DNA of 64,000 nucleotides, from the NCBI GenBank assembly GCA_036172245.1, contig JAYWIR010000098.1, positions 124,001 to 188,000 on the forward strand, in the 5' to 3' direction. The position numbers were made by a program, and so were the translations under genes. The stretch comes from Raillietiella orientalis (Eukaryota). Positions 3,414 to 40,349 of this stretch are shown piece after piece; the first letter of the stretch is position 1; each line of letters starts with the position of its first letter. The notes beneath the pieces are model-generated. The model saw only the letters and a program-made list of their open reading frames with translations. It made no database searches and was not told the origin of the DNA.

Positions 3414-3433
3414 GAGGAATCACTTTTTACTTC

Positions 3434-4855: not shown

Positions 4856-4959
4856 AGTAGTTTCCTGTGCCTCTCGGCAATAGTCTCCTCGAGTCCTCCT
4901 TCTTCTAACGCGTCCGCGAGTTTTTTTTTTTTAAAAAAAAAGCCCAAACAATTTCGCCG

Positions 4960-9599: not shown

Positions 9600-10279
9600 T
9601 CGCCGAATCCCTGGGGCAGACGTTGCACAGGGAACTGTTCGCAGAACTCCCGGACCGAGTCCTTAAATAGGTCCCAATCCGCGAGAATCTGGAGGGTGAC
9701 GCCTCGCAGGAATTCGCGAAGATGTTGTTTCGCTCCTGACAAACGCGTCCAGTTCCATGGCATACGCCAATCCCTGGATGGCGGTCCCTTGTCGCGCGGG
9801 CGCATCTCGAATAATAACCGGGAATGGTCCGACAGCGTCGATCCAAGTGTCCCTCGTTTTCCGACCCGTGTGCACAGGTCTTCGTCCAGGAAGACGTGGT
9901 CCACGCTGCTGAACATCCCGCTTATTTCTGTCAACAAGTTGTGCGCGCGCGTGGCGGCGTACAACTCGTTGATCGCGTTCCCCTGTGCTCCGGGCTGATC
10001 TGAGAGAAGACGGACGTTGAAATCCCCTGCTATCAGATGCGCCTTTCGCACGTCCGCGTCCACCAGCCATTCGCGCTTGATGGTTTCCAGTAACGCGTTG
10101 CGCTGCTGGTATCCCTGTTTACTGCTAGGAGCGTACACATTGGTGGCGATAAGTTCGATCGAATCGGACCATCTGAGAATCAGTTGGCCGATCCGTCCGT
10201 CGTCCCCAAAGCGCACGCCGTTCACGGCCGCGTTAATAGCTGACTTTAGAAAGAAAGCGACTCCACAAGTGATGCGGCA
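9600..10279 (-). mobile_element. B-like ORF2 fragment (APE endonuclease to linker)
   Basis: ORF 9569-10324: GVAFF, NVYAPS, HLIAGDFN, VDHVF, SDH, FPVQRLPQGFG. Confidence 0.9.
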
Positions 10280-10726
10280 GGACTCCCTCAGTCCAGCTGT
10301 AGCCCTGGCAGCACTTTGCTGCATTCGTGGTATAGTGGCGGCCTATAGTGATGCCGAAGATGAAGACTGCATCGTGAGGGATGTCATCGAGTATGCTTCT
10401 CGCTTCCTGCAGAGAGCTACCCGGTGGACCCATCTAGGAAGGATGAAAAAGGAACTAGAAGGCATCCTGCCAAGAATAGGCCCTCCCAGCAGTTTTCTGT
10501 GATCCCTTCCCGGCCCTCCAAACTTTTTTTTGTGGTTTGTTTTTCTCTTTTATTTTATTTTTGTGTTCTCCCTTATCCCCCTCTACTGCTGAGGAGAGCC
10601 ACACCGAGCTGCGTCCCGGTGTCCCGGAAGTTCCGGTATTGCGTGGCCGTCAGTGGGGCCTTGTACCACGTTCTGTATTGACCGTTGAAATGTTTTTAAT
10701 AAACGTCCCGGCGTATCCGGGTGGCA
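10280..10726 (+). mobile_element. 5'-truncated 3' terminus (ORF2 end plus 3' UTR) of a B-related element
   Basis: LAALCCIRGIV..., stop at 10502; 10480-10738 is nearly identical to 9352-9611. Confidence 0.85.
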
Positions 10727-10838
10727 TCGCCGAATCCCCGCTGTGGAGAGCGGACGTGCTTTTCCTGCGCTCCGCCTGCGTGGAAAGCGAGTGTTTTTTC
10801 TTCTTGAGTGATTTGTGCGTGCAAATCGTCGGTGTCCG

Positions 10839-12709
10839 ATGGCAGCGTCGCCAGAGGACACCGCGATGGAAGTAGGCGTGGAAGATGCTTGTTCGCCCCC
10901 ACAGCCTACTGGATCAGGGGCATCCGCCCCGGAATCGTCCCCGGCGACGCCGAGGTCATGGAGCGCCATGGTGGCAGCGCCTAGCGTTGAAGCCATGGCC
11001 GAGATGGAAGCCTACAAGAAAGCGGGGTATAAACCCTCGCTAGTCTACAAGGTAGGGAACCTTTTCGATGGACGAACTGCACGCGCCCTTACGAATGCGC
11101 TGCAGAACGCCAATATCTTCGAAAAAGATCTTGACGGCCTCTGCGTCCTCAGCGGCGGGCAGCGGGTCGAGGTGGTATGCAAGGATATCACCTTGGCCCG
11201 ACGCCTGATCACCAACCCGCTGATCGTTGATGGTCGCAAGATCTTGCCGGGGACGATGGACCGCTCTGTGGTGGTCCATCTCACTGGGATCTCCAGTCGC
11301 ATGACTAGGTCAGCGGTTCGAGAACAGTTACAAAAGCAGGGAGAAGTGCACGCGTTGTGGCCGAAGTCCACGATTTTCCGAAGCTACAATAGCCTTTTCG
11401 GAGGTCAAGCTGCGGCGCGTATCACACTAAAAGAGGGTGGTGTAATTCCCCAGAAGCTGGAGGTCTGCCAAGAAGCGGTGGACCTCTGGTACGTGGGGAA
11501 ACGTCAATTTTGTGGCTACTGCAATGCAGTAGGGCATCTACGAAAAAGGTGCCCGAACATTGTGTGCCACCTATGCGGCGAAAAGGGTCACGTTCGGCGC
11601 GTGTGCCCCAAGCGCCCCACCCCGGTGCCCCCTGCCGCCAAAAAGGCGCAGGGAAAACGTGGGAAGCTGGTAGAAAGACCAGCTCGCGAAAATGGCCGTT
11701 CCCAACTGCCAGCCTCCCTTCCTCCCGTACAGACGTCGGAGGAAAGAGCTCCCGTGAACGCGAAAATGGAGGAGGGTTGGCAGCTGGTTCAGGCCAGAAA
11801 AGAGAAAAAAAAGAAAGTGATGCCAGAAGAAAAGTCGGAGAAGAACACTGCCGGCAACAAGAAAAAAGCCGCGCCACTTTCAAAAAAAAAACAACTCCGC
11901 GAATGCTCGGTGGCACTGGAACGCTTAGCCGTTCCTGCCGAGTCCGCCCGCGCCAATGTTCGCGGAACAGCTGATGCGGACGCTATGAATACTCGCGTGG
12001 ACCAGCCCATTCTACGTTTAGAGGGTGAGACGCGAGACTCGCGCGCTGACAGCCAGGACGCCGCGCTCGATAATGTCGCGGAGGAGCCCGCGGCAACGTT
12101 CGCCGTCAGCGATGACGCCGCGCTCGATAAGGTCGCGGAGCAGCCCGCGGCAACGGTCGCCGCTGGCGAAGACGCGGCCTTCGAGAAAGCGGCGGAGGAG
12201 CTCGCAGCAACGCTCGCCGAGCGCGAAACCCCGTCGCGCAAGGGCGTACGCAGGTCGGCACCGACGAAGAAGGCCCCCGCAGGTGAGTGCGACCTGCGGG
12301 CCGGAAGCGGATCCTCCTCCTCGGAGGCACCTTCCAGGAAGGCGGGACGCAAGTCCCAGAAACCCAGGAGGCGTCTCCCCTCCACCAGCGAGGAGGAGAA
12401 AGAAGCGGCAGCGTGGGAATCCCGGAGGGGGAATACCCACGCCCGGAAGCCGTCGAGTCGACCACCCCCATGGAGGAGGGTGAGCAGGGGGGTGAAGTCC
12501 TCCCTGCACTCGCGAAACCTGAGCAGCCCGAATCCATGGAGGAGGGCGAACAGGTAGGCGCGACTTCACCTGCGGGTGATCCGGTCGACCCGCCGGCACC
12601 GATGGAGGAGGAGGAACAGGTGCCTTCAGTACCTGTATCCCCTCCCCCTCCACCTAGCGTCCCGCCCCAGCAGGTGGCGGACGCCGCATCGCCGTTTTCC
12701 CAGGACTAA
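10839..12709 (+). pseudogene. Element B ORF1 (2 CCHC knuckles, long disordered C-terminus), one apparent frameshift near 12,400
   Basis: ORF 10815-12557 (CGYCNAVGHLRKRC, CHLCGEKGHVRRVC) continues in ORF 12287-12709. Confidence 0.9.
12057..12218 (+). repeat. 57-bp (19-aa) tandem repeat x~3 in B ORF1 (DAALDKVAEEPAAT..)
   Basis: GACGCCGCGCTCGATAA.. units; the same repeat is in B' at ~33,634-33,795. Confidence 0.85.
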
Positions 12710-13747
12710 CACCTGGGCTCGCCAGTCGCCGTGGGATTCGCGCGGCCATTTGCAACGTCAACGGGCTGCGCGACAACGGCAACAGGCGAGATACGGCCGA
12801 CACCCTGCGTGAGCTCGACCTGGCGCTGCTGCAGGAGATCCACGTGATCACCGCGGCAGACGCCCAGGAAATCGAGACGATCGCGGGAGGTCGGTTGTAT
12901 TGGCGATGCGGCCTCCGCAACACCTGCGGGGTCGCGTTCTTCATGAAGCCGGTCATCGACGCTGCCGTAAAGGGCGTGCGGTTTGATGACGACGGTCGGA
13001 TCGGTCAGCTGATTCTCAGCTGGTCCGACTCGATCGACCTAATCGTCACAAACGTGTATGGCCTCAGCGGCAAACAGGGGTACCGCGACCGCACCAGGCT
13101 GCTGGAAACCCTGAAGCGCGACTGGCTGGCGGATACCAATGTGCGAAAGGCTCACCTGATAGCGGGAGATTTCAATCTCCGCCTGCTAACAGGTGAGCCG
13201 GAAACACAAGTGAACGCGATGAACGAGTTGTGCGCCGCCATGCGCGCGCGCAACTTGTTCACGGGTGAGAGGGGAATGGTCCACAGCATCGACCACGTCT
13301 TCCTCGACGCTGTCCTGTGTTCACGCGTCGGCAAACGGGGGAGGGTTGTGTCGACGTTGTCGGACCATTCCCGGCTAATTTTCGAGATGCGTCCTCGCGA
13401 CAAAGGACCGCCATCCAGGGATTGGCGTCTGCCGGGGGACTGGACGCTAATCTCAGGTGCGAGTGAACACCTTCGCGAATACCTGAGAGGCGTCACGCTC
13501 CGGAATCTCCATTGAAACCTGGTTGCGCCGGGACGTTTATTCTCACGAATAAACCTATACAATCTGTGACTGGACCAGTAGTCCAGCCACGCCCTGGAAA
13601 GATATAGCTTACCGGGCTACTGGTGCGCAGACCGGCGCGGTCGACCTCGGCAGCAGAGGGGAGGGGGAACGAAACAAAAAGAAAACAAAAAATAAACAAA
13701 AATCAGGGAGGGAGCGGGAAGGGATCACAGTCTGCTGGGAGGGTCCG

Positions 13748-16700
13748 TCATCCTCTGGAGGATGCCAGCAAGCTGTTTCTGCTTGTGTGGTTCCAGATGG
13801 GGCCATCGCGTCGACATCCTGTAGAAACGGGCAACATACACGTTGGCATCCCTGTCGCTGGATCCTCCCGTCGCTTTGCTTCATGCCACGACGATCTCGC
13901 GTAGGCAGCCCAGGGCTGCAAGCGAGGCCGCTGGAGGCAGGGCGTCACGGACGAAGTGGGGGCGCAAAGCGTCTCTGGAGTTGCCTCCGGGGATCCCCAG
14001 CGCTGCGGCACAGCGTTCCCACAAGGGACGGAGGGCAACACAATCCACTAACAGGTGGGGGAGGTATTCCCTCTCCCCGCACCTGACACAATTAGGGTTG
14101 ACACCCCCCCGCGTCCAGTGGTGTCGGCGGGCGTTGCAAGGAAGCCCCCAATGCAACACCATCAGTGCCGACTGTTGCCACTTCATGGGGAGGGTGCGCG
14201 AGTCTATGAGCACCGGGGGCCACTCGAGATGTTCCTCTGGAACATCTAGTAGCTCTCCCCAGCGCAACAGTATATTTGGGGTGGTCCTCGGGGTCGCAGC
14301 GTTGGTGAGCTGACCCGTTCTCCAATCCCCGATCTTCTTTGCCCTGCTGGCGATCTTGACAGTAACCTCCCATTGTGGCGCGACGTCGCTGCCCAGATGT
14401 TCCCGTAGGGTAGGCAGTACCGCAGCAAGGGAGGTTCTTTGTGCCCACGCTCTCCTTCGGAAATTCTCGATGATTTCTCGTAGCGTGCGGCGGGCATGCG
14501 GCCCGAACAGAGCTATTCGCTCATGTTGCGGGCTCTGCTTCTGAATCATCGCCCACGTGCGGACGGTTTCCTGCAACCAGGCAGGACCGTTCGCGGGGCG
14601 TACGAGGATCCGCGCCGAGTTGTTCTTCACGAGCTTGGCCGCCCTCCGAAGTTGAAGTCCACAGTGGCAGATGGGGCTTCGGAGTGCAAAGTAGGACGAG
14701 AGTCCCTCATTGCCGGTGGTCCGCTCGACGAGGAGACGTGCAGGGAGGCACCAAGGGGTGCACCAATTTTCTGCCATAAAGGCAACAACTCGGAACTGGA
14801 GCTGTAGCTCCAGCCGCTCCAACGTCAGGAGGCCCAGACCACCATCCCGACGAGGAGCGCACAAGTCCGAAAGACGGACTCGGGGCCTCCCTCTGCCCCA
14901 AAGGGCGATCCTCAGGAGGTCCTTCGTTCTCTTCTTTGACTCCGCTAAGGGGGGGCAAACAAAAAGCAAGGGGCGAAGGAGATAGGCCGCAAACGCGTTC
15001 CACGCCGCAACCCGTTCATGCAGGAAGAACCTGCCGTCCTGGAACGGGCCGATCGTCTCCTGAGCCTTCTGAAGGCAGCCGGACCACGCTTCCGCAGGGG
15101 AGTAATCCCCCAACGGCACACCAAGGTACTTGAAGTACCTCACCGTGGGGATCCCCAAACGGACCCAGTCCTGCTGCCCTGCCCACGCCGCTCCGACTGG
15201 CATTACGGACGACTTCGCCCTGTTCACCGTCATTCCTGTTCCCCGACTCAGCAGGTCGAAGAACTCCTCGACCGCCGCAACCGGGGTGGACATAGGCAGC
15301 AGCAGCAGAAGGTCGTCCGCGTACGCCGAAACCGCAGGCGTACCGGGACAATCGCACGGCAGGTGCGCAAGAGTCTTCCTGTACGCTCTCAGCACCAATT
15401 CGAAATAGGCGCTAAAGAGCAGGGGGCTCAGGCTGTCTCCCTGCCGTATGCCGCGTCGCACCGGTACTCCGTGCACGGTTTGCCCGCTGAAAAGAACATT
15501 AATGAGCGCGTCGCGCCAGCTGAAGCGCAGGTAGGCCAACAAAGAGGCCGGGAAGCCCAAGCGTTCCAGAAGCTCCAGCAGGAGATTCTGGTCGACGCTG
15601 TCGAATGCTTTACGCAAGTCGACAGCGACCGCAAGGGCTCCCTTCCCCACCCGACCGTTCCGTCTCTTGCCAACGGACGCACCGGAATTCCGGCTGCTCA
15701 ATAAGCCCCTTCCTTGTTGGAGCTCTAACCATGTGGAAGTGTGGAACAGGTTCGCCTCCATGCTCCGCCCGGGAACAGCATAAGTCTGTTCCGGGCTGAT
15801 GAAGATGTTGGCAACCCGTCCCAGACGCTCTGCCCACATCTTGGCTATCAACTTGGCGTCCGCATTCACTATTGTGATGAAACGCCAGTTGTTCATGCTC
15901 CTTAGGTCTCCTCCCTTCGGGAGGAGCCGAACCTTTGCTGAACGAAACGAGGTGGGAACGTCACCTGTTACACGGATCAGCAAGGTGAGCTGATGTACCA
16001 GGGGAGTAAGCTGAGCCGCGAAAGTTTGGTAAAACTCCGCGGGCAGGCCGTCCTCCCCTGGAGCCTTCCGCCTCTTGAGCTTTCCGATGGCCGAGAGGAT
16101 CTCGTCCATCGTGAAAGGCTCGTCGAGGCTTCTTTTCTCCTCCGCCCCGATCGCTGGAGCACCTTCCGGAAGCAGAAGTCGTGAGACGTCCCGCTCCGGA
16201 GGCGCCCTGGCGTACAGGAAGGAGTAAAATTTTCTGACTATCCCGCGTTTCTGAGCGGGAACCGAGTGCTCCCGGCCCTGATCGTCCAGCAAGCTGGCCG
16301 ACCCGGATTGCCAGGCTTGCCTCTCGGCTCCCGCTCGATACTCTGCTAACCTGCGCATGTCGGGGGTTCTCGCGTAACGTCGGGCCTGAAGATAGCACCT
16401 TTCGTTACGCGGCCCCTCCCCAAATACCGCAAGTAGGCGATGCAGGGGGAACTGATCGCAGAACTCCTGGACCGACCGCTTGAAGCGGTCCCAGTCCTGA
16501 AGTGTCTGCATCCTGAAGCTCCGAATAAACGCGCGGAGGTGCTCCGCCGCGTCGGGAATTTCAGCCAGTCCCCTGGCAGACGCCACGCTGACGAGGGGGA
16601 GCCCTTGTCGCGCGGACGCACTTCGAACATGATCCGACCATGGTCCGACAGCTCGGATGGTACCTTGCCGCGCCTGCCCACCCGAGAGCATAGGTGCTGA

Positions 16701-17305
16701 TCAAGGTACACGTGATCGATGCTGCTTTTCATGGCCGTGTCCCCGGCCAACAAGTTGCGCGTGTTCATTTCTGCGCACAACTCGTTGACGCGGTCGTTCA
16801 GTGTATCCGGCGCACCTGAAAGCAGGCGCAGGTTGAAATCACCTGCGATCAGGTGCGCTTTGCGAACTTCTGCATCGGTCAGCCAATCGCGTCTCAGGGC
16901 AAGGTAGAATTTCCTTCTTGCCTTCGCCCTCAACGCGTTGTTTCCGCTAGGAGCGTATAGGTTGGTGACGACCAGGTCGATGGAGTCGGACCAGCTGAGA
17001 GTCAGCTGACCGACGCGACCTGCGTCATCGAACCGAACGTCCTTTATTGCGGTTTCAATGGCTGGCCGGAGCAGGAAGGCGACACCGCTTGATTTCGCGG
17101 TGCCGCAACGCCACAACAGCCGCCCACCCGAGATCCGTTCGATCTCCCGGGCTTGATCTGCGGAGATTACGTGGATCTCCTTCAGCATCACCAGGTCGAA
17201 GGATGCCAGGGTGGCGGCCACGTCACGCCTCTTGCCGTCGTCGCTTAGCCCGTTCACGTTCCAACAGGCGATCAGAAGACGACGGCGAGAGGCGATTCCC
17301 GGCAT
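13748..17305 (-). pseudogene. Element C ORF2; longest intact stretch in the window (936-codon ORF), frameshifts near 16,560 and near the C-terminus
   Basis: ORFs 16346-17305 (WNVNG, GDFN, SDH) and 13881-16691 (KAPGEDG, DLRKAFD, QGDSLSP, YADD, CVRCG..H..C). Confidence 0.93.
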
Positions 17306-18911
17306 TATGGCTGGGAAAGTGGCGTCGCGACACCTGCCGCGGGGCAGGTGTAGGAAAGGTTTATCGGTACGAGGACGGAGGCCTCTTCAGGCGCCTGGGG
17401 TACCTGTTCGGCCTCCATCCTCACCATCCCTCCCGTGTCCGAGCGTGGAATTATCTCGGGCGACGGGTCTTGGGAGTTTCCCACGCTCATGGCACCCTCG
17501 CTACCGGAAGCCATCTCTTCCCCTTCGTCGGGGGAGACGATCTTCCGGGGCATTGTGGACTTTCGTCCTGCCTTTTGGCGGGGTGCCGCGGAGATGGATG
17601 CTGTGTTTCCGGCCTTCACCTCGGGGTCGGAAGTGGCCGACTCCTGAGGGGAAGCCACACGCCTGACGGCCTTCTTGCCAGCCTTGGCGGCAACCGGCTG
17701 CAGCGAGGCAGCCAGCTCCTCCGCGGCGCGCTCGAAGGCGACGTCATCGAGCGTGGGCTCGATGACGGACGCCGCCGCCTCGCTCCCCTCCTTGTTGACT
17801 TTGTCAACAGAGGGTTGAGCAGGGGCAGCAGCGAGTTCTTTAGCGCCGCATCGGTCGATGGCGGGAATCCGCTCTACAACGACGCAGCAGCTTTTAATTT
17901 TTTCGAGGCGCAGAGCGGTTTCGCTTCGTTTCGCCACGTTCTTCCCCTTCTTATGGGAGTTTTTCTTGGGGTCGACCTTCTTCCACCCTGGCTCTTGACC
18001 CTCGCCCTCGACCTTTTCGGCGTTTTTCGCCGAAGTCTCGGGGCTGGCCTTCGTCTTGGTGGCGGAGGTGAACTCCTTAGCAGCAGCACGAGATGCCAGC
18101 TTCTTCCTTTTTTAGCCGCGCGCTTTCTCGCGTTTTTCGCGGACACGACGCGGACTGTGTTTTGGGGGCACACCAGACGGGTGTGCCCCGCTTGTTTGCA
18201 TTGCTGGCACTGCACGCTCGGACACCTCATTTTAAGGTGACCAAAGCTGCTGCAGCAGCCGCAAAACTTGGGTTTTCCCACGTACCACACGTCAACGGAT
18301 TCACCGTTGACGGTGAGTTTGTGGGGAAACTCACATCCCTCGCGAACCGTCACTCGCGCTGCACCCAGGCCGCCAAGCACCCCGTCGTAATCGACAAAAG
18401 GAGTAGGCTTTCCCCACAGCGCGTGGACAGTTGCAAACTTTTCTAATCCGTTCCGGACGGCCTCCTTCGTCATCCGGAACGTGATACCGGTCAGGTGAAT
18501 GATCACCGACCAATCTTCAGTAATGGGGAGAAGCCTTCGGCTGCCCATAATTACGGGGGATCGCAGAAGTCTCTGCGCAAGAGTTGCCTCCTTGCAGATA
18601 ACTTATACAAATTGACCCCCGCTTCTGACGGACATAGCCAGAAGCTCCTCTTTTTGTACACCGAGAACGCGCTTCGCCTGCGAAAAGGCGCGCGCGTTCT
18701 CGGGAGAATATAAACCGCCTACCTTATATAGAAGGGGTGGGTTATACCCCTCCTCCAGGTAAGCGCGCATTTCCGCCATAGCCGCTGGCGTAGGTGCCGC
18801 AGCCACGGCGTTCCAAGCCCTGGGTAGGGCCGGGGGCGCATCCGTGCTGGCGGGAGCCTCCACTGATGCGGGAGCCCTCATCTCCATCTCCTCGGTGGTG
18901 GAATCAGGCAT
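17305..18911 (-). pseudogene. Element C ORF1, disrupted
   Basis: ORFs 18603-18911, 17874-18548 (CGCCSSFGHLKMRC, CQQCKQAGHTRLVC), 17305-17937. Confidence 0.9.
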
Positions 18912-21900
18912 TGCTGCCTAATCCTCCACCCACACCACGCACAAGCACCAACGGAAATGAAACTCAGGTGCAACGAAAAGACACGTCCGCTCGACGCTCC
19001 GGAATCTCCAGGACTGGGACCTTTTCAAGGAATCGGTCCGGGAGTTCTGCGAGCAGTTCCCTCTGCACCGCCTGCCCTCCGGATTCGGCAAGGGTCCTCG
19101 CAACCATCGGGCTTATTTACAGGCCCGTAGGTACGAGCGAACCCCTAATGTCCGTCGCCTGGCCGAGTACCGCGCCGGGGCCGAACGCCAAGCCTGGCAA
19201 TCCGGGTCCGCCAGCTTGCTGGACGACCAGGGCCGGGAATGTTCGTCCCCGGCGTCGGTACGGCATCTCGTGCGGAGTTATTATTCCTCCTTTTACGCCA
19301 GGGCGCCCCCGGATCAAGATGCCTCTCGGCTCTTGCTTCCGGATGGTGCTGCAGCAATAGGGGAGGAGGAGTCGTTAAGCCTCGATGAGCCTTTTACCAC
19401 CGGCGAAATTCTCGCCGGTATCAAAAGGCTCAAGAGGCGGAAAGCTCCAGGGGAAGACGGCTTGCCCGCGGAGTTCTATCAGAGCTCCGCGGAAGAGCTG
19501 GCACCCCTGCTGCTTCAGCTGACAAGGCTGATCCGAGACGAAGGCGATGTTCCCGCCTCGTTTCGGTCAGCCAGAGTGAGGCTCCTTCCGAAAGGAGGAG
19601 ACCTTAGAAATTTGAACAACTGTCGTCCGATCACGATTGTGAATACGGACGCCAAGTTGGTTGCCGGGCTATGGGCTTCGCGTATGGGGCAGGTGGCAGA
19701 ATCCATAATCAGCCCGGAGCAGACATATGCTGTTCCCGGGCGAAGTATGGATGCCAACCTCTTCTTCGCAAGCACATGGGTGCACCTGTAGAGAAGAGAA
19801 AAGAAAGGGATAGGGAAAGTCGGCAACCCCACATTCGGGCCGCCACCCGGGCTAGGAAGGGAACCCCGGGCGGGAAAGGGGGCCCTTGGGCTCGCAGTCG
19901 ATCTTCACAAGGCGTTCGACTGTGTAGACCAGGAACTCCTCTTGGAGCTCCTGGGTCGCATGGGCTTCCCACCCTCCCTGATTTCCTACCTGCGCTCTTG
20001 CTGGCGGTATGCGATGATTACCGTCTCTTTTAGTGGTCAAAAGGTTTATGGCGTGCCGGTGCGGCGGGGCATAAGGCAGGGGGATAGCCTCAGCCCCCTG
20101 CTCTTCAGCACCTACTTTGAGTTGGTGCTGAGAGCGTACAGGGTGACTTTGATCCCCTTGCCGTGCTGGTACCCCGGCACGCCCGCCGTAGCAGCGTACG
20201 ACGACGATCTTCTGCTCTTGTTGCCAATGTCCACCCCGTCAAAGGCGGTCGCAGACTTCTTCGATCTGCTCAGCCGCGAGACCGGACTGCAGGTTAACAG
20301 GGCGAAGACGTCGGTTGTGCCAATAGGTGCGGCGTGGGCGGAGCAGCAGGGCTGGGTTCGTCTGGGGATCTCCACGGCGAGGTGCTTCAAGTACCTTGGT
20401 GTGCCGTTGGGGGACTACTCCCCTGCGGAAGCGTGGTCCAGCTGCCTCCAAAAAGTCGAGACGGCGATCGGCCCGTTCCTGGAAGGCAAGTTTCACTTGC
20501 CGGAACGGGCCGCTTTTTGGAACGCCTTCGCGGCCCCCATCCTTCGCCCTTTGCTTTTTGTTTGCCCCTCCACTGTGGAATCGAAGAAGAGGACAAAGGA
20601 CCTCCTCCGTATTGCCCTTTGGGGCAAGGGGAGGCCCCGAGTCCCTCTGAAGTACTTGTGCGCTCCGCGTCGAGACGGCGGTCTTGGCCTCCTGACGCTG
20701 GAGCGCGTGGAGAAGCAGCTGCGGTGGCGAACCCTCGCCATCGCAGCGAAGATTTGGAGCACCCCTTGGTGCACTCCGGCCCGCCTCCTTGCCAGGCGTG
20801 TTTCCCGGTGCGATGGACTCGCGTGTTTTCTTCTGAGCCGTGGCCGGAAGATGGAAAGATGCGGCCTACTGCTCGGGCGCATGGCAACATTGACCAAGGT
20901 GAACAGCTGGATGGTTTGCTGCCCCGCCAACACCCCGCCTGGCTGGAGGAGAATATTGGAACGTGGGCAGCGGTTAACCAGTGGAGCCACGAAACCTGGA
21001 ATCGTCTCCGATGCAGCCCCTAAGCCCGCTGCACGCTGCGGAATCTTCTGGATAGTACAGCAAGATGCACGTGGGCAGAGACGACCTGCTTAGCTACGGC
21101 TCTGCCCTTCCACAGGAAGGCACTTCAGAGCAGCCGAACGCCAAGGTGGGAAGTCTCCTGCTGCATCGAGGAACGCGAGAAGTTGATCAGCGGCTGGACA
21201 ACAGGAGAACTGTACGACGCCACTACACCGAGCGTCCAGCCGCGAGGACTAAGAAGATGCGTCGAGCTGCTGGCCATCCCTATGGATGTGCTGAAGTGGC
21301 CCCCGCTTCTTCAGGAATCCAGGATCTTGCCCCTTGAGTGGAAAGAGTCGGCGTTGCTGTTGTTGCATTGGGGTTTGCCCTGCAACGCACGTCGCTCTCA
21401 CTGGACAAGAGGGGTTGTGGATCCTGCGTGTGTCAGGTGCGGAGAGCGGGAATCGCTCTCCCACCTTATTGTGGACTGTGCTGCCCTTCGTCCCCTTTGG
21501 GAACGGTTTGGGTCGATCCTCGGTCTCCCTACGGGCAGTTCCCCTAGAGACATTCTTCCCCTTCTTTTCGTGAAGGACGCCCTGCAGCCAGCCGAAGCCC
21601 TTGCAGCCTTGTGCTGCGTCCTAGGCATTGTGGCGGCATGGAGCGACACCAACAACGAAGGAGTAGGTCAACACGCGAGGGATGTCATCCCATATGCCCA
21701 ACGCTTCTTGCGGAGAGCTGCTGGATGGCCCCAACTGGGGAATATACGGATGAACCTCGAGGGCTTCCTTCAACGGATGGGCCCTCCTGTCAGCGAACAG
21801 TGATCCCTTCCCTGCCCCCCAACCTCATTTGTTTGTTTGCCTCTTGTTTTTATTTTTGTTTTTCCCCATCCCCTTTCGCTGCCGGGGAGTGCCACGCCGG

Positions 21901-22010
21901 GCTGCGTCCCGGCGTCCCGGTAGGTCCCGTGCATAAGGCCGTGAGCGAAGCCTGGTACCGCAATTGTAGAGTTTTTTATAAATAAACGACATGGGCGTAC
22001 CCGGGTGGCA

Positions 22011-25000
22011 ACGCATAAGCCCGGCGGAAGACGTTCCAGGGGAAACTGGTCGCAAAACTCACGGACTGAGCACTTCATTTCGTCCCAGTCCGCGAGCGTC
22101 TGAAGCTGGAATCCTCGCAGGAAGAAGCGTAGATGTTCCGCCGCTCCTGCGAGGCGCAAACAATCTCCTGGCAGGCGCCACGTTTTCAGGGGAGGGCCCT
22201 TATTGCGCGGATGTAACTCGAGCACGAGCCGTGGATGGTCGGACAGCTCTGCCTGGAGCGTTCCTCAAATTCCCACCCGCGTGCACAGGTGGTTGTCGAG
22301 GAACATGAGGTCCATGTTCCGATCTCTCCCGGCATCACCGGCCAACCAGTTGCGCGCATTCATTGCTGCGCACAACTCGTTAACCAGTTGTGCTCGACTG
22401 CTGGGCGCACCTGCCAGGAGGCGGAGATTGAAATTTATCACACGGGCACGCCGGGGCGTTTATTAATAATACTAAACTGGTCAGGGACAATGTCCTCAAC
22501 CAACAGAACGACAGAGAACATAGAAAAATTACCGGCACGCAGGCCTGGTAAACAAACCGCTCGCAGCGTGGGGGGAATGAGGGGAAACAAACAAAAATCA
22601 AAAACTAGAGGGAAGGGTAAAGGGTTTTTGGTTAGGCTCCGTACTCACGGGGATTTAAACGATGAGCACCTCGAATGTTCCGAAGGCTATGAAGACGCGG
22701 GTGTTAAAAGAAAATACAAAATTAGTTTATGGAGGGTAGGGCAATGATCACCGGGTTGGCCGCTGCTGAGGATGTGTAAACGGGCGGTGTATTGCGGCGA
22801 GATTCCTTTTTGTCTCCTCTGTCAAATGAGGCCATCTAGCGGATGCTCCTATGTTGAAGGATGCTTTGCTGATTACCTCTTGGTGCTGTCCGTTGATTAC
22901 CAACGCCTGGCGGACGGAAACTATCGCGCGTATGCAACCGATGGTTGCAATCCTTGCGCTTAGTGACAGCCCGCTCGGCGTGAAGAATCGTCGCAGCAAG
23001 TCTCTTGCGGTGTCCACGGGATGCATTAGTGCTGTTGCCAGCCTACGCCACAGTCCTTGTAGGACACCGCAGTCCAGAAGTAGGTGCGGAATCGACTCCG
23101 TCGATCCGCACCGAACGCAGTTTGCAGACGCAAGTCCCCCGGAGTCACGATGCCAACGCTCGTTGCACTGAAAACCCCAGTGAACGAAAAGCAGCACGGC
23201 TTGCTTTTAAGCAAGGGGGAGCAGCAAAGTGTCAATACACTGTGGAGGGACTACAAGTTCTTCGGGGGTGACAGCAAGTTCTTCTGCCCACCGGAGGAAC
23301 CCCTTTGCAGTAACACGAGGAGTGGCGGCGTCCGCCAACTCTCTCGTCTTCCAGGCGCCAAGGATTCTGGTTTTTCCCGCTATCGTGCAGGAAACCTCCC
23401 ATTTCGCCGGTTGGTAACTGTCGTTTCTTGCCCTGAGGGCAGACAGCGCTGCGGCAAGAGGCGTGGCAGCCAGGGTAGATAACTTCACCTCGTCCTGCAG
23501 TACTTCTTCCAAGGATCGTGGAAAAAATTGACGCAGGGGGCGAAGATCTTCAGGGCGTATTCCTTGGAACGCCGTCCAGGATTCAACAGACTCCTGTCGC
23601 CAAGCTTCAAAGTTCATTGGGCGGCAGGAGATCCACGAGTGAGCTTCCAGAAGTGCGGTCAACTGCCGCAATGGAAACCCGAAACCCCGCTTCCTGTATT
23701 GAGTGCCCGGCAAAAGCGAGAGAAATCCTCAGCTGCCGGCGCATCTCCGCAGGAGAATGCGGGCTGGCACACACAGAAGGGATGTCCATAGCTGGGCACA
23801 CAGTGCCAGCAGTCGGAACTGCACCTGCAGTCCGTTTCGCTCCATTGTTAAGATACCTAAACCAGCATCCCGACGCGGAGCTAACAAATCTTTGAGGCGG
23901 ATTCTGGATCTCGCCAGACCCCAGAGAGCGTTCCTAAGCAGGCGTTTAGCCCGCTGTTTTGCCGCATAGGGGGGGTCCAAAACAAAAAACAGGGGACGGA
24001 GGGGGGGAGCCACAAAGGTGTTCCAAATAGTCGCCCGTGCCTGCAAGGTAAACTTGCCGTTAAAGAACGGGCTGATGGCCAACTCTGCTTTCTGAAGACA
24101 GTCCGCCCACGCTTCGGCTGCGCCGAAAGCGCCCAACGGAACGCCAAGGTACTTAAAGTACCCGACCGTGGGGATCCCCAGGCGGATCAAGTCGGACTGA
24201 CCCTCCCACTACGTACCCACAGGAACGACCACGCTCTTCTTTCTGTTCACGCTCACGCCCGCTCTTCGACGAATCAGGTCAAAAAAATTCTCGACACTGG
24301 ACGCCGGGGTGGACTTGGGGAGCAGAAGAAGCAGGTCATCAGCGTAGGCGGCCACGGCAGGCGTTCCCAAGCAGGAGCTTGGCAAGTGAGACAGCGTCAG
24401 CCTGTATGCTCTTACCACCAACTCAAAGAAGATGCTGAAGAGCAACGGGCTTAAGCTGTCGCCCTGTCGGATGCCCCTACGCACGGGAATACCATACACG
24501 CGGCAGCCGCTGAAAGTAATGCAGGTTAGCGCGTGGCGCCAGCACGCGCACAAACACAGCAGGAGTTGCGCCGGGAACCCAAGGCGTTCCATAAGCTCCA
24601 AAAGCAGCTTCTGGTTTACGTAGTCGAACGCCTTGTAAAGATCGACCGCGACCGCCAAGGCACCTGGCGTTTCCTCCTGCCGTTGGCGCCTGTTCTTCTT
24701 GCCTGCGGCAGTGACTTTCGCAGCAGACTGGCTTTGCTGCGCCACAACTTCCTGCAGCTGCATCCATGTACGCGCGAAAAGGATGTTCGGCTCCATGGAT
24801 CGTCCCGGAACCGCGTAGGTTTGTTCCGGGCTCACCACAGATTCCGCGATACTTCCTAACCGCGCTACCCACAGCTTGAAAAACAACTTGACGTCCGAGT
24901 TCACCAAGGTGATCGGACGCCAGTTGTTAAGTTGACGCAAGTCTCCGCCTTTCGGCAGGAGACGCACCTTCGCTGAGCGGAAGGAATCCGGGACATTCCC

Positions 25001-28000
25001 GGATTCACTCATCAGCGTCGCGAGTTTCAGCATCAAGGGAATGAGCTCCACTGCAAAGCACTGATAAAACTCTGCAGGGAGCCCATCCTCGCCTGGCGCC
25101 TTTCGTCTCTTCAGCCCAGCGATTGCGGACGAAAATTCATCCGCCGTGAAGGGCTCGTTGGGACGTTCGCGTTCCTCCTCGCCGACAACACGAGCATCCT
25201 GAGACAGGAGTATCTCAGAAAGAATATTCTCCGTCGGGGATTCCGCATACAGCAAGGAGTAATAGCGTCTCACAATGGGGCGTACTTCGGCTGGGGCCGA
25301 ACATTCCTGGCCCTTGTCGTCCAACAGGCATGCTGCTCCGGACTGCCACACCTGGCGCTCGGCCCTCGCCTTGTACTCTGCAAGACGCCCGACATCGGCG
25401 CGTTTCGAAAACGTGCGGGCCTGCAGAAAGTCTCTACTGTTGGCCACGCCCTCTCCGAAGCCGCGTGGAAGCCGGTGCAAGGGGAATTGGCAGCAGAACT
25501 CGCGGACAGATCTTTTGAGATCGTCCCAGTCCGCAAGTTCTTGAATGGCAAAGCCTCGGAGGTATCCACGTAGATGCTCCGCAGCCTCCGGTTGGCTAAG
25601 CCAATGCGCCTGCATGCTCCAGTTTTGCAACGGAGGCCCTCTACCTGGCGGAAGGATCTCAAACTCCAGCCTGTGGTGGTCAGAAAGCCTAGTCAACAAT
25701 CTTCCTCTCCTACCCACACGCGAATGCAGGTTTTCATCGAGGAAAACGTGATCGAGCGATCTTTATATTCCAGGTTCGCTGACCATCAAGTGTGCGGCGT
25801 GCACGGACGCGCACATCTCGATGGGCAGCGCGCGCTCCCTCGGGCGGCTCCAATCGTCGGAGAGCAGGCGGACGTTGAAGTCCCCAGCGACGAGGTGCGC
25901 CACTTGGAAACCGGAGTTGTTAAGCCAGTGACTCTGCACCTCACCAAAGAAAGCTACTCTTTCTTCGAGGTAGCGAGAGCCACTCGGCGCGTAGACGTTC
26001 GTAACGACGAGTTCGATGGACTCGGACCACTTGATGACAAGCTGGCCTTTCCGTCCGTCGTCGTCGAAACGAACACTACGCACCGCTTCCGCAATTTTTC
26101 CTCTTACGAGGAACGCGACGCCGCACGTGTGTGCGCCGCCGCACCGCCAATGTAGCGTTCCGCCTGCGCGCTCCGCGATTTCGGCTGCCTGCTCGTCGGA
26201 GATTACGTGAATCTTCTGCAGGAGCGCGAGGTCGAAGGGGCGCAAGTCGTTGGCTACTAATCGCCTCTTCTCGTCGTTCTGTACTCCGTTCACGTTCCAA
26301 CACGGTACGGACAGACGACGAGAAGACGCGATTCCATGCATTACTGCTGGGAAGGTGGCGGCTTTTTGCTCGCTTTATCCGGCGAGCAGACGGCGAGCAG
26401 CACGACTGGCTGGAGGGGACGGTCGCCACCGTCTTCTGTCGTGCTGCATGCATGTAATGCCTCCACGCCAGGCTTAACCCCGTCGGGTTTCGTGGAGACT
26501 TCGCGTGGCTTCGCGGCTAGGGTTGCCTGGCTGCCTACTTTTGATCGGCGCGCACACGCTTTCGAACGAGTTGTGCTCGTCTTGGTGATCGGAACGGCAT
26601 CCATTTCGGAGTCCGAACGGCGCATGTTCGATCGGGTATCGGCCTTCCGCGAAGTAGTGACAGGTTCTGCTGGATTGACAGCTGTCCTCTTGTCTTTTTC
26701 CGTCTGCAGAGCATCGCTTTTGGTGACGGCTGCTTTCCCGGCGCGCGCGTTTTCAGCGTGCTCACGCGCAATTGCACGAGGGACCTTTGCTGAAGTGTTC
26801 TTTACTTCAATACGGTTCCTCACTTCGCGTGGCGCCGTAAATAGAGATTGTGCTCCATTGCCATGTTTGAAGCCATCCGCGTCTTTGGACGGGAGCACTT
26901 TCGATGGCTCCGACACGCTTTTCATGGACGCTGCCTTCGGTAGGGCCTTAAATCTTTTCGTTGGCATGGCATCCGCGCCAGTCAAGAGCTTGCTCTCCGA
27001 CTGCGACGGCGTGAGATTTTTCTCCGCTTTCGCGGTCTTGGATCGCGACGCGGATTTTTTTTTTGCCGAGTTTCGTGGTCGACACGGCACAACCCTTCTT
27101 ACCCGATTTGGGCTTCTGAGTTACTGCAGGAGGTGAAGGAATGGATCTGACGGTACTGGAAGTGTCCTTACCGCCGTTGTCCATTGACGTCCCCGCCGGT
27201 TGCTCGAACTCCGAGAGAGCCATGCGTGCTTGGGAAGGACAGCTATTGCGTCTAGGGGGACTTATCATTGCCTTGGATTCCCCGAACCCTTTCTTTTGCG
27301 GCTCCCCTGCCGCGAGAGAGGCCGCGCAGGGCTCCGCGTGCGAGGTTTCCTGCTGCTTTGGGGCGACATTCCGCCTCGCGTTTTTTCGGAATTTCTGCCG
27401 TGGGGTCTCCAGGTTTTTCGCAGATGTTTTCTTTTTATCCGCGCTTTGTTTTTTAAGATGGAGCTCCGCGGCTGCCTTTTTTCTCAAAAGATCCGGGCAG
27501 TTTTTCAATTGGTGCCCGGATAGTTTGCAATAACGGCATTTTCCAGAGGGGCATTTATCCAAACAATGCCCCTCCTTCCCGCATTGCTCGCACGTTCTTA
27601 CTTTGCCCACGAACCACAGGTGAACGACCGTGTCTTTCACCTGTAGTTTGGTGGGCAGCAGAAGGCGGTCCGGCATTGTAAGCCGGACTCCAGCGACTCC
27701 GCTGTGTATGGACGGGAAGTCCTTGAGGTTGCTACGCACCCTCCACAGCGCATGGACCGTGGCGAATTTCGCCAACGCGTGCCGAATATCAATATCGGAG
27801 ATTTCCGACTCGATGTCGAAAATCTCCGCCACAAATGAGTCGTCCATGGCTGCCGGGAAGACCTTCTTGCCACGGATCGACAACGGGGTGCGCAGCAAGC
27901 GTTGCACAAGTGCAGCGTCTTTGCAACGCACCTTGAAATAGCCCATGTCTTTTACGGGCATAATGGCAAGAAGCTCCTCCTCCCGCACGCCAACACGGGT

Positions 28001-29376
28001 CAGTTCATCGTTGAACTGATTCCCGTCGCGCGCAGAAAGAAAACCACTCACCTTATATCGGAGAGCAGGTCTATAGCCTTCGGCTACGTATGCTTGCAAC
28101 TCCGTCTCGTCGAGTGGCTTCCCTTTGACGGCTGCTGTGGCAGCAGCGTCAGCAAAACTCCTCTCCATTGTCGAGATAGACGAAGTGCAGGCGGCCGTCG
28201 GTTCCGCGATAGCAGATCCGGATTCTGTTCCTACAACTTCAGTAGCTTCAAGTTCGGTCGCCATCGTCGTCAAAATGTACGACGCCAAGATGAAGCGGAT
28301 GAAAGCACGGAGACGAGAGCGGAGAAAAGCACGTCCGCACTCGATTGAAATCTCCCGCAATGAGGTGCGCCCTTCGCACGCCTGCTTCGGTCAACCAGTC
28401 TCGCCGCAAGGTTTCGAAGAACACAGTGCGTTCCTCGGCCCTGTGGCTGCTCACCAGAGCGTACAGGTTCGTGACTACGAGGTCGATCGAGTCCGAACAC
28501 TTTAACACAAGCTGCCCAACTCGACCTTCTTCGTCGAACCGTGCACTGCGCAGTGAGTTGTCGACGGTTGGCTTTAGCAGAAAGGCCACTCCGCAGGAGT
28601 TGTCCGTTCCGTTCCTCCACAGTAGCCGCTTTCCCGCGATTCTTTCGATTTCCTGGACATCTCCCGGTCGGAGAACGTGCGTCTCTTGCAGGAGCACCAG
28701 GTCGAAGTCTCGCAGTATGGCGGCTACATCTCGCCTCTTTCCGCCGTCGCGCAACCCGTTGACGTTCCAACAGGTGATGCGCAAGCGGCGGCAGGAGGCG
28801 AGCCCACGCATTGGTGTATTTATGGTAGGGTGGAGGCGGCCTCCTCCCTTTCGGGAGACGGCTCGTTGGCGGCCGTGACGACGGTCGGCTGCTCACACGG
28901 GAGCACGTAGTCAGCAGCGACTTCCATTGCGCTGGCTTCCGAGGCGCGGACGGGAGAAGGCTCGCGTGACGCGACGCACATTGCCTCCCCCTCCGTGCCC
29001 GAGGACATGGGCTCCTCCACTTGGGAGGAGGCGACACGTCTCGGGCATCCGGCCTTCTTGCCAGCTTTCCTCTTCGGCACGGCTGCGGAAGTAGAGCAAC
29101 CGGCTTCAGCGTCGGACCCGGAAGATTCCGGGCCCTTCGCCGTCGCCGGTCGTCTCAAGGCCTTCTTTTCGGCCTTGGCAGGCCGCCTGAACATGGCTGC
29201 CAGCTCTTCCGCGGCCTGCTCGAAGGTCGCGTCTTCGATTCGCGCCACCTCCTCGCTTTCCGCACCGACACTCGGCGCAGGCGCAATGGAAGCGGCTTCA
29301 TCGATCGGCGCGCAGACGTCCTTGGCTGGCAATGCCGAAGCGGCATTGTCGTCAGCTGATGGTGACGTCACTGCGT
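22011..29376 (-). mobile_element. Element J: ORF1 end plus APE/linker; host of D, bounded by B and F insertions
   Basis: ORFs 28820-29395 and 28248-28811 (..HLIAGDFN); resumes at 22434 (NLRLL..FPLERLPPGL). Confidence 0.88.
22435..28343 (-). mobile_element. Element D: full-length (~5.9 kb) with 8-bp TSD
   Basis: ATTGAAAT at 22427-22434 and 28344-28351; ORF1 26341-28264 and ORF2 22748-26341, both disrupted. Confidence 0.95.
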
Positions 29377-32314
29377 TTTTACCCGGATATGCCAAGGCAT
29401 TTATTTAAAAAAAAAAAATAAAAATACATGTAATTTTCGGGTGAAGTACCTGATGGTTCAGCACAAAGCAGCCTGCTTCTTGCCGATTCTAAACCGGCGA
29501 GGTCCTTCCAACGCTCGGGAATGGGAAGAAAAAAACAAAACAAACAAAAAAATGTAAAAATTCGAGAGAGTACTTCTGTTTGGGAAGGGGGGGGCATGAA
29601 GGGAATCACATTGCTCGCTTAAAGGTCCTCTAAATCCTGTTCAGGATCTTCACAAGCTGCGTCCGTTGTGCACCCAGGTGTCTCCACCTGCAAATGTTTC
29701 TCACAAAAAGGCGAGTCCAATGTACAGCATTGCCGCAAGCTTGGAGCTTTCTTCTTGTCGCGTTCCAAGCCGACACGCTCCCTCTAATGCAGCAAAGAAC
29801 TGATACAGAAGCGCGAGGGGACAAGGCATCACGCAAGAAGAGTCGCCTAAAAACGTCTTTAGGGCCGCCTCCGCGAATGTCCAGGATCGCCGTAAGGCGA
29901 TCCCATAAAGGGCGGATGGCACTGCACTCAATTTGAAGGTGGGGGAATGTCCCTTTCTCCCCTCACTCGTCGCACTGGGAATCCACAGCCCCCCGAGTGG
30001 AGTGAGAGAGGCGTGCCTTGAAGGGTAAACCCCAATGTATCACGAGCAGCGCCACCTCCTACCATTTCAGGGGGAGGTAGTCACTATTCCAAGACGCTGG
30101 GGGCCACTTCATCTCCTCCGCAGATAGTCCGAGTAGCTCTCCTTAGCGTCGGATTCCGTTGGGCGGGACACTGGGCGTCGCAGCGTCCGCTAGCTGCCGA
30201 GATGTCCACGCTTTAATCTTTTGTGTCCTACTTTCGATGGTGCAGGACATGGTCCATTTCCCCTGCTCGCTACTGTCCCTGGCATTCACAAGGAAGGGCA
30301 GCACTAAGGCGCAATGGGTTATCAGGGCCCACAGGAGGTGATCGTGGGACTGCACGATCTCCTGCAGCGTCCAGCGGGCGTGCCTTTTCAGGCAAGTGTT
30401 TTTTGTGCCCGCCGGAACGTGAAGCTTTTCCCAAGCGGAGACTGTCTCGTGCAATCATGCCGAGTAGTTCCCTGGGAGGCAGGAGATCCAGGCGTTCTCC
30501 CGTACCACAACGTCCATGCGACGCAGGAGAAAGCCGCCTTATGCTTCTCTGCGGTCGCGCGCCAGCAGAAACGACAAAAGTCCGCCGAATCCGCAGGCTC
30601 GTTGGGCCAGGAGGCGTGCTGGAACGCATCAAGGCGTGTCCCACAATTTGGCCGCGAGGGCGAGAGTCCTGAATTGTAGTTGGAGTTCCATGCGCTCCAG
30701 CGTAAGTAGGCCAAGTCCACCGTCCTTACGTGGAGCTCACAAGTCTTTGAGCCTCATATGGGACCTTCCTTTGCCCCAAAGGACTGTCCACAGGAGGCTT
30801 GCTGCTCGTTTTCAAATAAAATAAGGGGCGGGGCAAACAAAAAGTAGGGGGCGAAGAAGGAAGGCCGCAAACGCGTTCCACACCTCGGCCCGTTCCTGCA
30901 AGTAGAACTTGCTTTCTTGGAACGCAACGATCGCCAACGCTGCGTTTTGAAGACGGTCGGACCAGTCTTCTGCTGCGCAGAAGTCCCCCAACGCCACGCC
31001 AAGGTACCTGAAGCACCTGCCCGTGGGGATCCCCAAGCAGATCCATTCCGACCTTCCAGCCCACGCCGAGCCAGTACAAGTTATGGACGACTTCGCCCTG
31101 ATCACCTCCAGGCCCGTCCCGCGGCGCAGCAACTCGAAGAAGTCCTCGAGCGCACTCGCCGGGGTAGACCCGGGAAGCAGCAGCAGAAGATCGTCTGCAT
31201 AGGCCGACACAGCAGGCGTGCCGGGACACGAGCTCGGCAGGGTTGCCAGAGTTACCCTGTATGCCCTCAGCACCAACTCAAAGTAGATGCTGAAGAGCAA
31301 GGGGCTCAGGCTGTCACCCTGCCGCATGCCGCGTCGCACTGGCACGCCGTACACGTGCCGGCAGCTGAAACCAATATTGATATACGCGTTGCGCCAGCAG
31401 GAGCGCAGGTAAGACCGGAGCACGGACGGGAAACCCAAGCGTTCCAGGAGCTCCAGAAGGAGATCCTGGTCGACGCAGTTGAATGCTTTGTGCGAATCGA
31501 CCGCGACGGCAAAGGCTCCCGCCGAGTCCGTCCTTTCTTCTGCATGATCTTCTTGGTCAGAGGGGAGCGCAAGGCTCCCTTGACCATCCTGAGCAACGCG
31601 TTGTCGCAACTGCCAACATGAGCTGGCGAGGAGCAGGTTGGCCTCCATGGTTCGTCCAAAAACAGTTCAGGTCTGCTCGAGACTCACCAAGGAAGCGGCC
31701 ACCCGCCCCAAACGCTCAGCCCACAATTTGGCATACAACTTTGCGTCCGCATTCACTACTGTGATAAAACGCCAGTTGCTAATGTTGCGTAAGTCTCCTA
31801 ACTTTGGCAGGAGACGTACCTTTGCTGACCGGAACGAGGCGGAAACTTCACCGTGTTCGCGCATCAGCGTACTGAACCTGAGCACCACGAGGGCGAAGTG
31901 CCGCGAAGTGTTTGTAAAACTCCGCATGCAGGCCGTCCTCCCCTGGTGCCTTCCTGTTCTTCAGCCTGTTGATGGCGGAGACGACTTCCACCATCGAGAA
32001 CGGTTCTGCCAACCTGGAACGATCCTCCTCCTTGAGCGCGGGGAGGCCATCCGGCAGCAGGCGCTGCGCGAAATGGCGCTTCGGTGTTAGTGGCGCGTAC
32101 AAGGAGGAATAGAACTCCCGCACGATGCGGCTTACCTGAGCTGGGCTGCAGCGTTCTTGGCCCTGATGGTCCAGCAAGCAGGCCGAGCCTGAATGCCAGG
32201 CCTTCCTCTCATACTCAGCCTTGAATTCTGCCAGGCGACGGACGTCGAGACGCCTGGAATAAGGGCGGGACTGAAGGTATGCCCGCTCGTTCCTGACTCC
32301 CTTCGCGGAATCCC
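29377..32314 (-). mobile_element. Element F: ORF2 from linker to 3' end, cut at GF(R)EG by B'
   Basis: ORFs 31848-32477, 31667-31927, 30812-31648 (YADD), 30143-30454, 29630-29836; 3' AATAAAATGCCTTGGCATATCCGGGTAAAA. Confidence 0.9.
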
Positions 32315-36755: not shown

Positions 36756-36757
36756 TA

Positions 36758-39700: not shown

Positions 39701-40349
39701 GGTTTCCTGCACGATAGCGGGAAAAACCAAAATCCTTGGCGCCTGGAAGACGAGTGAGATGGCGGACGCCGCTACTCCTCGTGTTACTGCAAAGGGACTC
39801 CTCCGGTGGGCAGAAGAACTTGCTGTCACCCCCGAAGAACTTGTAGTCCCTCCACAGTGTATTGACAGTTCGCTGCTCCCCCTTGCTTGGAAACAAGCCG
39901 TGCTGCTTTTCGTTCACTGGGGTTTTAAGTGCAACGAGCGTTGGCATCGTGACTCCGGGGGACTTGCGTCTGCGAACTGCGTTCGGTGCGGATCGACGGA
40001 GTCGATTCCGCACCTACTTCCGGACTGCGGTGTCCTACATGGACTGTGGCGTAGGCTGGCAACAGCATTTATGCATCCCGTGGACACCGCAAGAGACTTG
40101 CTGCGACGATTCTTCACGCAGAGCGGGCTGTCACGCAGCGCAAGGATTGCAACCATCGGTTGCATACGCGCGATAGTTTCCGTCCGCCAGGCGCTAGAAA
40201 TCAACGGACAGCACCAAGAGGTAATCAGCAAAGCATCCTTTTACATGAAAGCATCCGCTAGATGGCCTCATTTGACAGAGAAGACAAAAAGGAATCTCGC
40301 CGCAATACACCGCCGGTTTACACACCCTCAGCAACGGCCAACCCGTTGA
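36758..40349 (+). pseudogene. Element D' ORF2, disrupted
   Basis: ORFs 36758-37900, 38048-38242, 38227-39612 (DLHKAFD, YADD), 39585-40349. Confidence 0.92.

Follow-up and report, generated by a model that had tools for sequence, protein, structure and literature searches.

L1-like LINEs inserted antisense at ORF2 linker codons of sister LINEs, with a probable RNA-borne copy of the target site

The window analysed here is a stretch of 64,000 nucleotides of Raillietiella orientalis (G000:C98:124001-188000, contig JAYWIR010000098.1) within a eukaryote assembly of 210 Mb. It contains nested retrotransposons without long terminal repeats (LTRs), with an open reading frame 1 (ORF1) that encodes a zinc knuckle and an ORF2 that encodes an apurinic endonuclease-like (APE) and a reverse transcriptase (RT) domain. 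The family labels B, B1, B3, K, K', H, J and F were given in this work or in an earlier reading of the letters alone (the sequence-only reading) and are not published names. The B clade probably consists of APE-type, L1-like long interspersed nuclear elements (LINEs) that insert by target priming and carry on their RNA a copy of the target site, which pairs at the second strand and re-seeds the site. This grading applies to the whole model. The position of the first join, the target-derived copies at the 3' side, the subfamily-specific 5' termini and the tandems of mixed subfamilies can be seen directly in the DNA. Target-primed reverse transcription is the established insertion mechanism of such LINEs.

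The sequence-only reading had described a 12-mer at four junctions of a single family B. TCGCCGAATCCC was indeed found exactly at 9600-9611 and 10727-10738, TCGCGGAATCCC (11/12) at 32303-32314 and ACGCATAAGCCC (8/12) at 22011-22022. When both strands of the window were scanned, the exact 12-mer occurred only at 9600 and 10727 and a copy with one mismatch only at 32303; a first-order Markov model gave expectations of 0.015 exact and 0.51 one-mismatch matches on both strands. The copies at 9600 and 22011 come after the 3' motif AATAAAC..CCGGGTGGCA, and past them lie minus-strand APE frames ending in QRLPQGFG and ERLPPGLC, respectively. The copy at 32303 has a minus-strand RT frame (..GVRNERAY) on its left and a B 5' end on its right. 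At 10727, the 12-mer is the joint of a 3' end with a B 5' end, and the same junction was present on two other contigs, C123 and C46. The host frames and the occupancy counts given below support the proposed antisense insertion at the linker codons (PxGFG-E) in ORF2 of sister LINEs. The assumption of one family B did not hold, as subfamilies had been lumped. B1, which is about 70-77% identical to main B, provides the 3' ends at 9599 and 10726, and 10739 is the start of main B. Thus, the tandem in the window joins two different subfamilies.

At the 3' junctions, base 1 of the 12-mer belongs to the element. In tandems it was T after 10/10 B1 ends and A after 30/30 other ends. Among 20 dispersed insertions with a target site duplication (TSD), the two copies were unlike at base 1 in eight, and each time the right copy had the base of the subfamily. 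The distal hexamer after 3' ends tracked the host family instead, with AATCCC in B1, AAACCT in K and AAGCCC in K', which explains AAGCCC at 22011. The host family at this position had GGGCTTC in 5/5 matches; as for the mismatches there, the A is the base of the element, AAGCCC is host-family sequence and two are later substitutions. Of the TSD of ~12 bp that had been proposed, the target-derived duplication at the 3' side stood, but it starts at base 2, since base 1 is the last base of the element.

A 16-base 3' motif had 387 exact matches in the genome. A different pattern, 3' end plus linker-type sequence, had 115, which are not a strict subset of the former. Seventy 3' ends were examined among the 100 matches listed of the 387, the last 40 being picked away from known linker sites; 15 were linker-like and 55 were not. 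A TSD was found at 20 of the 55 non-linker ends, with a scored length of 10-19 when mismatches were allowed. C predominated in the left flank of these insertions (15, 16 and 12 of 20 for the last three positions), and TSDs begin with C-(C/G)-C-C, which gives the top-strand consensus CCY-N^CSCC. As the antisense of the linker is CCC(C/T)T^CGCC and conforms to this consensus, the site is a hotspot of a short preference and not a unique 12-mer. The idea of a fixed 12-mer as recognised sequence had to be given up, because the dispersed truncated copies use the short C-rich consensus and have TSDs of unrelated sequence.

No poly(A) tail followed the 3' end at any of the 70 ends shown. The 3' ends of B and J have the form AATAAAC..CCGG..CCGGGTG(G/A)(C/T)A without poly(A). 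Folding of 3' ends was no better than that of shuffled sequences (z 0.78, 1.10 and -0.30), and a small CCCGG hairpin is predicted at the B1 3' end. The third base after B1 non-linker ends (20 cases) was mostly G and never C, and often C in the other subfamilies; the subfamilies may differ in nick or primer-pairing preference. Inserts of only about 20-26 bases of the B 3' end, flanked by TSDs, were observed at L076, L079, L083, L090, L194, L205, L213 and L228.

Full-length copies were nearly confined to the linker site, and they start with a site copy that is specific for the subfamily. Empty K linkers have AAACCT as native hexamer. In K hosts, the 5' end was preceded by AATCCC in 6/6 cases of main B and by AAAGCC in 6/6 cases of B1, and B3 had AATCCC or GATCCC in 10/15 and AAACCC in 5/15, but never AAACCT (hand tally). 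At L135, with K on both flanks, AATCCC stands at the 5' and AAACCT at the 3' side. A truncated B1 in K (L182) has kept AAACCTGG. Three off-register joins (L166, L242 and L244) consist of host sequence followed by GCCT-T(C/T)GCCGAAAGTC, which is about 15 bases of site copy, and at the off-linker joins L239-L241 the switch from host to element lies inside microhomology. L241 (G000:C44:1542569) is a full-length B3 antisense in the ORF1 of a relative, at GEVHAL codons that have 10 bases in common with the linker site. The site had been thought to be regenerated by duplication alone. This needs amendment at full-length 5' ends, where it mostly comes from the element's own 5' terminus. A 12-mer fixed to the B terminus whatever the flank, which the sequence-only reading had named as evidence against itself, was present at the 5' junction only, with the distal half fixed per subfamily. 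No Rfam match was obtained over 10250-11000 at E up to 1 and hence no known ribozyme family at the 5' end. The 5' ends of B, B1, B3, J and H all have GGACGTG and a T-rich run within about 20 bases. This stretch may be an internal promoter, and the 3' motif of B and J may serve as a 3' recognition signal.

A 21-base pattern for the 5' end of main B gave 35 matches, 30 of which were examined. Seventeen came after the RT side of a host linker, twelve after a B-clade 3' end and one stood at a contig edge. With the B1 and B3 5' patterns, 75 of 81 matches were element ends (hand tally, 7 control matches) and 36 of these 75 were tandem. The proportions of 12/30 and 36/75 support the origin of the tandems from repeat insertion at one site. 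A looser search for main B 5' ends returned 16 of 53 matches without the site copy; the four of these 16 that were fetched were not B. Altogether, 41 distinct tandem contexts were compared among the loci collected in this work, in a sample biased towards tandems, and they join mixed subfamilies. The search for tandems joined by exactly the 12-mer, which had been suggested earlier, was borne out for the spacing, with one register in 40 of the 41, and in part for the letters, with the exact (A/T)CGCCGAATCCC in 19. C123 and the window share 96-98% over about 10.7-19 kb, compared with about 95% for other copies, and by this paralogy the junction in the window is not independent. The related junctions of C123 and C46 contain a longer version of the B1 piece that ends at 10727. 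Seven additional bases are present at the C46 junction, which would agree with pairing of the leader at an incorrect GCC. Among the eight shown read pieces of 26 matched to 9200-11800 (one DNA run, 0.08 of words), none bridged 10,700-10,760, which is no evidence either way. The direction of tandem growth was not readable from L146 or L182.

Position 1 of the contigs C105 and C413 lies at or inside the site copy that precedes a B 5' end, indicating a tendency of the assembly to break at such junctions. Many linker-type junctions are located on small contigs or near contig ends. Two tandem 3' pieces at L101 have one truncation point, and four truncated copies (L104, L105, L116 and L121) have a common B1 start (5058-5059). 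These five loci are possibly a non-autonomous derivative.

Occupancy was counted with exact patterns. The linker was filled in 17/18 copies of B1, 44/55 of K and 5/5 of K', compared with 2/81 of main B. Youth as the cause of the empty main B linkers was not supported, as the median divergence was 5.0% versus 3.2-4.1% for B1 and K, in a sample biased towards junctions, where the values for B were widely spread. Main B often holds J and H insertions and its copies are thus accessible. Hosts and inserts were paired unevenly: K2 had B1-type ends in 15/16, K1 other ends in 16/19 and B1 other ends in 14/15 cases. The distances of hosts and inserts were correlated in K2 (Mantel, rho 0.71, p 0.002) and K1 (0.38, p 0.025), with 0.14 (p 0.22) in B1, and given the values for K2 and K1 the occupancy and pairing counts overstate the number of independent events. 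Inserts 13-19% apart were found in hosts only 1-2% apart. The view that hosts F and K' are one family could not be substantiated; no empty site was found and the basis was the single locus L146.

In the proposed mechanism, the B endonuclease would nick the G-rich strand at the CCY-N^CSCC consensus. The RNA would start within the site copy, no more than about 15 bases ahead of the nominal 5' end. By means of this copy, the finished cDNA would pair with the overhang of the second strand, which would favour full-length joins at linker-like sites. The antisense GFG-E codons of sister LINEs are the best genomic match to nick consensus plus leader and would for this reason be the hotspot. After a full-length insertion, the site would be intact again at the 5' junction, and a further insertion there would give two elements head to tail, separated by one site copy. 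As the 3' junction is without the C-rich left half, growth at the 5' side is predicted, a direction that we infer from the site requirement.

Several findings weigh against this mechanism. The leader was deduced from DNA junctions alone, and the evidence for its 15 bases comes from three joins of one B1 sublineage, with the host of L244 compared with a 79% homolog only. AAACCT was present at 4/24 B1 5' ends, which is compatible with a sublineage as well as with a plain TSD, and L238, a possible B1 5' end, is without a site copy. At 35 of the 55 non-linker 3' ends, a TSD was not found. Part of the junction count is due to duplication, as indicated by the paralogy of C123 and the window and by the rho of 0.71 in K2. 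Finally, the left and right flanks of some full-length copies, such as L145, come from different host families, and flanks have thus been reshuffled by recombination.

The most direct alternative is a plain 12-bp TSD of a strictly recognised site, with both copies derived from the target and no source of the regenerated site other than duplication. It agrees with all 3' junctions and truncated copies, with ancestral R1 tandems and with B in B1 hosts, in which the sequences of element and host are the same (L147). Still, it is very unlikely, as base 1 tracks the element, the 5' hexamer tracks the element in K hosts and about 8 bases of consensus are all that dispersed targets share; for full-length 5' junctions it is already contradicted. 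The hotspot, the hexamers and the tandems could also be mostly descent of composite units if few insertions had been followed by segmental duplication, unequal crossing-over or gene conversion. The paralogy of the window and C123, the Mantel correlations of K2 and K1 with their clear duplicate pairs and the mismatched flanks at L145 point in this direction. However, hosts and inserts were not correlated in B1, near-identical hosts carry distant inserts, the same base was used in at least four subfamilies and five host families and copying of a linker junction cannot yield off-register joins, which makes this account improbable. Read-through transcripts or template jumps that copy two elements at once would suit the common truncation point at L101 and a 3' end without a marking poly(A) tail. 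They are hardly to be expected as the source of the tandems, given that the partners vary across subfamilies with a single spacer register in 40/41 contexts and that a dimer would be about 11.5 kb long.

For 9600-10738 only, a single twin-primed B1 insertion was considered, with an internal primer on the RNA's own GFG codons, so that 9612-10277 would not be host. Both pieces are 95% identical to the same full-length B1 and are flanked by two identical 12-mers. B1 ends in B1 hosts are otherwise rare, the case of 9600-10738 being 1/15, and a similar inversion with a 140-bp gap exists on C91 (L177). In the related C123 junction, however, this B1 copy extends further upstream, and 10282-10726 groups with C123 but 9354-9599 does not. 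A like layout on C40 (L150) joins two different subfamilies, and no shared derived variants link the inverted piece to one copy. Based on the upstream extension on C123 and the layout on C40, a deletion join is more likely here than twin priming, which we regard as possible but doubtful. L177 itself (G000:C91:209273-212309) has an inverted APE piece from the linker, joined to a sense piece 140 bp on, between two site copies, which is a twin-priming-like arrangement; its 3' part switches subfamily. An interpretation of L177 as a TSD of about 250 bp was rejected because of numerous differences between the two stretches. Target-primed insertion with an RNA-borne site copy is preferred for the B clade as a whole.

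B has the ORF layout of the APE-type L1 superfamily, namely, an ORF1 with a CCHC knuckle and an ORF2 with an N-terminal APE and an RT domain. The domains zf-CCHC and Exo_endo_phos were matched on B itself and RVT_1 above cut-off on its sister elements H and J; the RT half of B and the ORF2 of H have an alignment identity of 69%. Compared with solved structures, the RT of H matched human L1 ORF2p with E 1e-39 and R2 with E 4e-14 or weaker, and the APE of B matched L1 endonuclease and chimeras with E 4.5e-6 to 1.6e-4. The clade also shows 5' truncation and TSDs of variable length as does the L1 superfamily. A 3' poly(A) tail is typical of L1, but not universal. Database relatives had at most 32% identity except for one match of 74%.

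Drosophila R1 is an APE-type LINE that forms tandems around one target duplication via insertion at the 5' copy. Its off-target copies have 4-9 bp in common with the site, and in transcripts of the melanogaster type, 5' target sequence pairs for precise full-length joins, whereas truncated copies have ordinary TSDs (Stage & Eickbush 2009, PMC2718515). B resembles R1 at the DNA level in its tandems with one target copy and in the target sequence at full-length 5' ends. The target of R1, which defines the R1 clade, is 28S rDNA, whereas B had LINE ORF2 frames or other B copies at 29/29 scorable 5' junctions. In R1, the leader stops 9 bp upstream of the nick, and few tandems occur in those lineages, while the putative B leader spans the nick site and tandems are frequent. 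Unlike in R1, the leader sequence varies by subfamily in B. Thus, B works like R1 but is not R1, and as both pieces of the mechanism are known from R1, the mechanism is not new.

Tx1-clade LINEs target transposons, as Tx1L does in Tx1D, and Tx1-Mar and SINEU-3 in Mariner-N4; tandem SINEU-3 copies that sandwich one TSD have been read as sequential insertions (Kojima 2015, PMC4494074). Both Tx1 and B are L1-superfamily LINEs that prefer a site in another mobile element, and the filling of B1 and K linkers corresponds to the Tx1-clade preference for a site in a multicopy sequence. The targets named in the available portion of that source are DNA transposons, LTR elements, snRNA genes and microsatellites, and ORF2 codons of related LINEs are not among them (PMC4494074). 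The green-algal L1 LINEs Zepp and ZeppL form clusters by nesting into existing copies, with arrays rich in 3' ends, and ZeppL is reported not to occur beyond its clusters (Craig et al. 2021, PMC8226300; bioRxiv 10.1101/2025.03.28.645958). Confinement to one cluster per chromosome was not found for B, whose 3' ends lie at many positions on C1-C22 among the first 100 of 387 matches and on all large contigs listed. Nesting into the own family was seen at the level of the clade, with 2/81 own linkers filled in main B, and B inserts antisense at a defined codon, mostly in sister subfamilies, and is without poly(A). Zepp has a poly(A) tail. In Drosophila, site preference and TSD lead to head-to-tail dimers of transposable elements with one target copy between them (bioRxiv 10.1101/158386); these double insertions involve duplication alone and no element-borne site copy, which B appears to have. 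No paper on LINEs that target ORF2 codons of other LINEs was found in a search that left most subscription journals and Repbase Reports outside, so that absence from print is not implied. Noteworthy here are the sister-LINE codon target, the putative leader spanning the nick site and the occupancy gap (17/18 and 44/55 versus 2/81).

In the window, the first part of the nest is a B1-subfamily 3' end (9354..9600, plus strand, 91% to full-length B1) without a poly(A) tail, whose last base is T at 9600 by the first-base rule. It is followed by a host-derived site copy (9601..9611, plus), antisense of G-GGA-TTC-GGC-G, and by the C-terminal half of the APE of a B1 copy as host (9612..10277, minus, 95% to B1 APE), broken off at 10277. 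The upstream tandem partner is the final 450 bp of another B1 copy (10277..10727, plus, 95-96% to B1 3' ends) with T at 10727 as last base. One site copy (10728..10738, plus) separates the two tandem elements, and its distal AATCCC is the main B 5' terminus. The 5' half of the full-length main B (10739..13511, plus) comprises the 5' untranslated region (UTR), ORF1 with its CCHC knuckle (10812-12557) and APE (12658-13515). The 3' half (18994..22011, plus) comprises RT and the 3' UTR and ends with A at 22011; its own linker near 19081-19092 is empty. Between them, the sister LINE H is nested antisense (13512..18993, minus) with a 17-bp duplication (13495-13511 and 18994-19010). The next site copy (22012..22022, plus) is host-derived with the host-specific AAGCCC and two later substitutions. 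It leads into the C-terminal part of the APE of host K' (22023..22435, minus), called host J by the sequence-only reading, which continues near 28344 past the nested element J. Further on, the RT half of host F from the linker codons on (29768..32302, minus) is joined to B' by a 5' junction (32303..32314, plus), the proximal half of which is host-shared and followed by the element-type AATCCC. B' itself (32315..41912, plus) is 92% identical to B and its own linker near 41074-41085 is empty. It is interrupted by J at about 34757-40662 and a second time at 41912, where another family breaks the DLHKAFD codons of RT.

H (window 13495-19010; L031, L036, L134, L148 and L185) lies antisense in B at TL(R/Q)NL codons with a 17-bp duplication. 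J (window 22435-28344, minus, and 34757-40662, plus; L142) is inserted in sense into APE domains at their AGDFN codons, flanked on both sides by an 8-bp ATTTCAAT copy; 12 distinct host 5' junctions were seen. One J-J head-to-tail tandem was observed. A more distant LINE (about 30% to the ORF2 of the nest) is located at the left edge of the window (231-4930, minus), and 57001-62000 has a GC content of 35-45% and is without homology to the nest.

A far-reaching and rather unlikely interpretation is a predator-prey guild, in which the short RNA leader of each LINE subfamily would match the linker codons of a preferred victim. B1 would pair with K2 and main B with B1 and K1, the victim would be killed by the insertion in ORF2 and self-avoidance would be achieved via synonymous changes in the own linker. 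If this combination were true, target choice would be heritable and could be retuned through about 15 bases of RNA. The probable mechanism of the B clade would provide a base-level rule for the growth of LINE-only nests, which would combine a nicking preference for a short sequence, a conserved coding motif and an element terminus that supplies a new site. The conserved linker motif in the relatives cannot easily change. With such a rule, direct tests would become possible of how retrotransposon subfamilies compete and of what 5' RNA homology contributes to APE-type integration.

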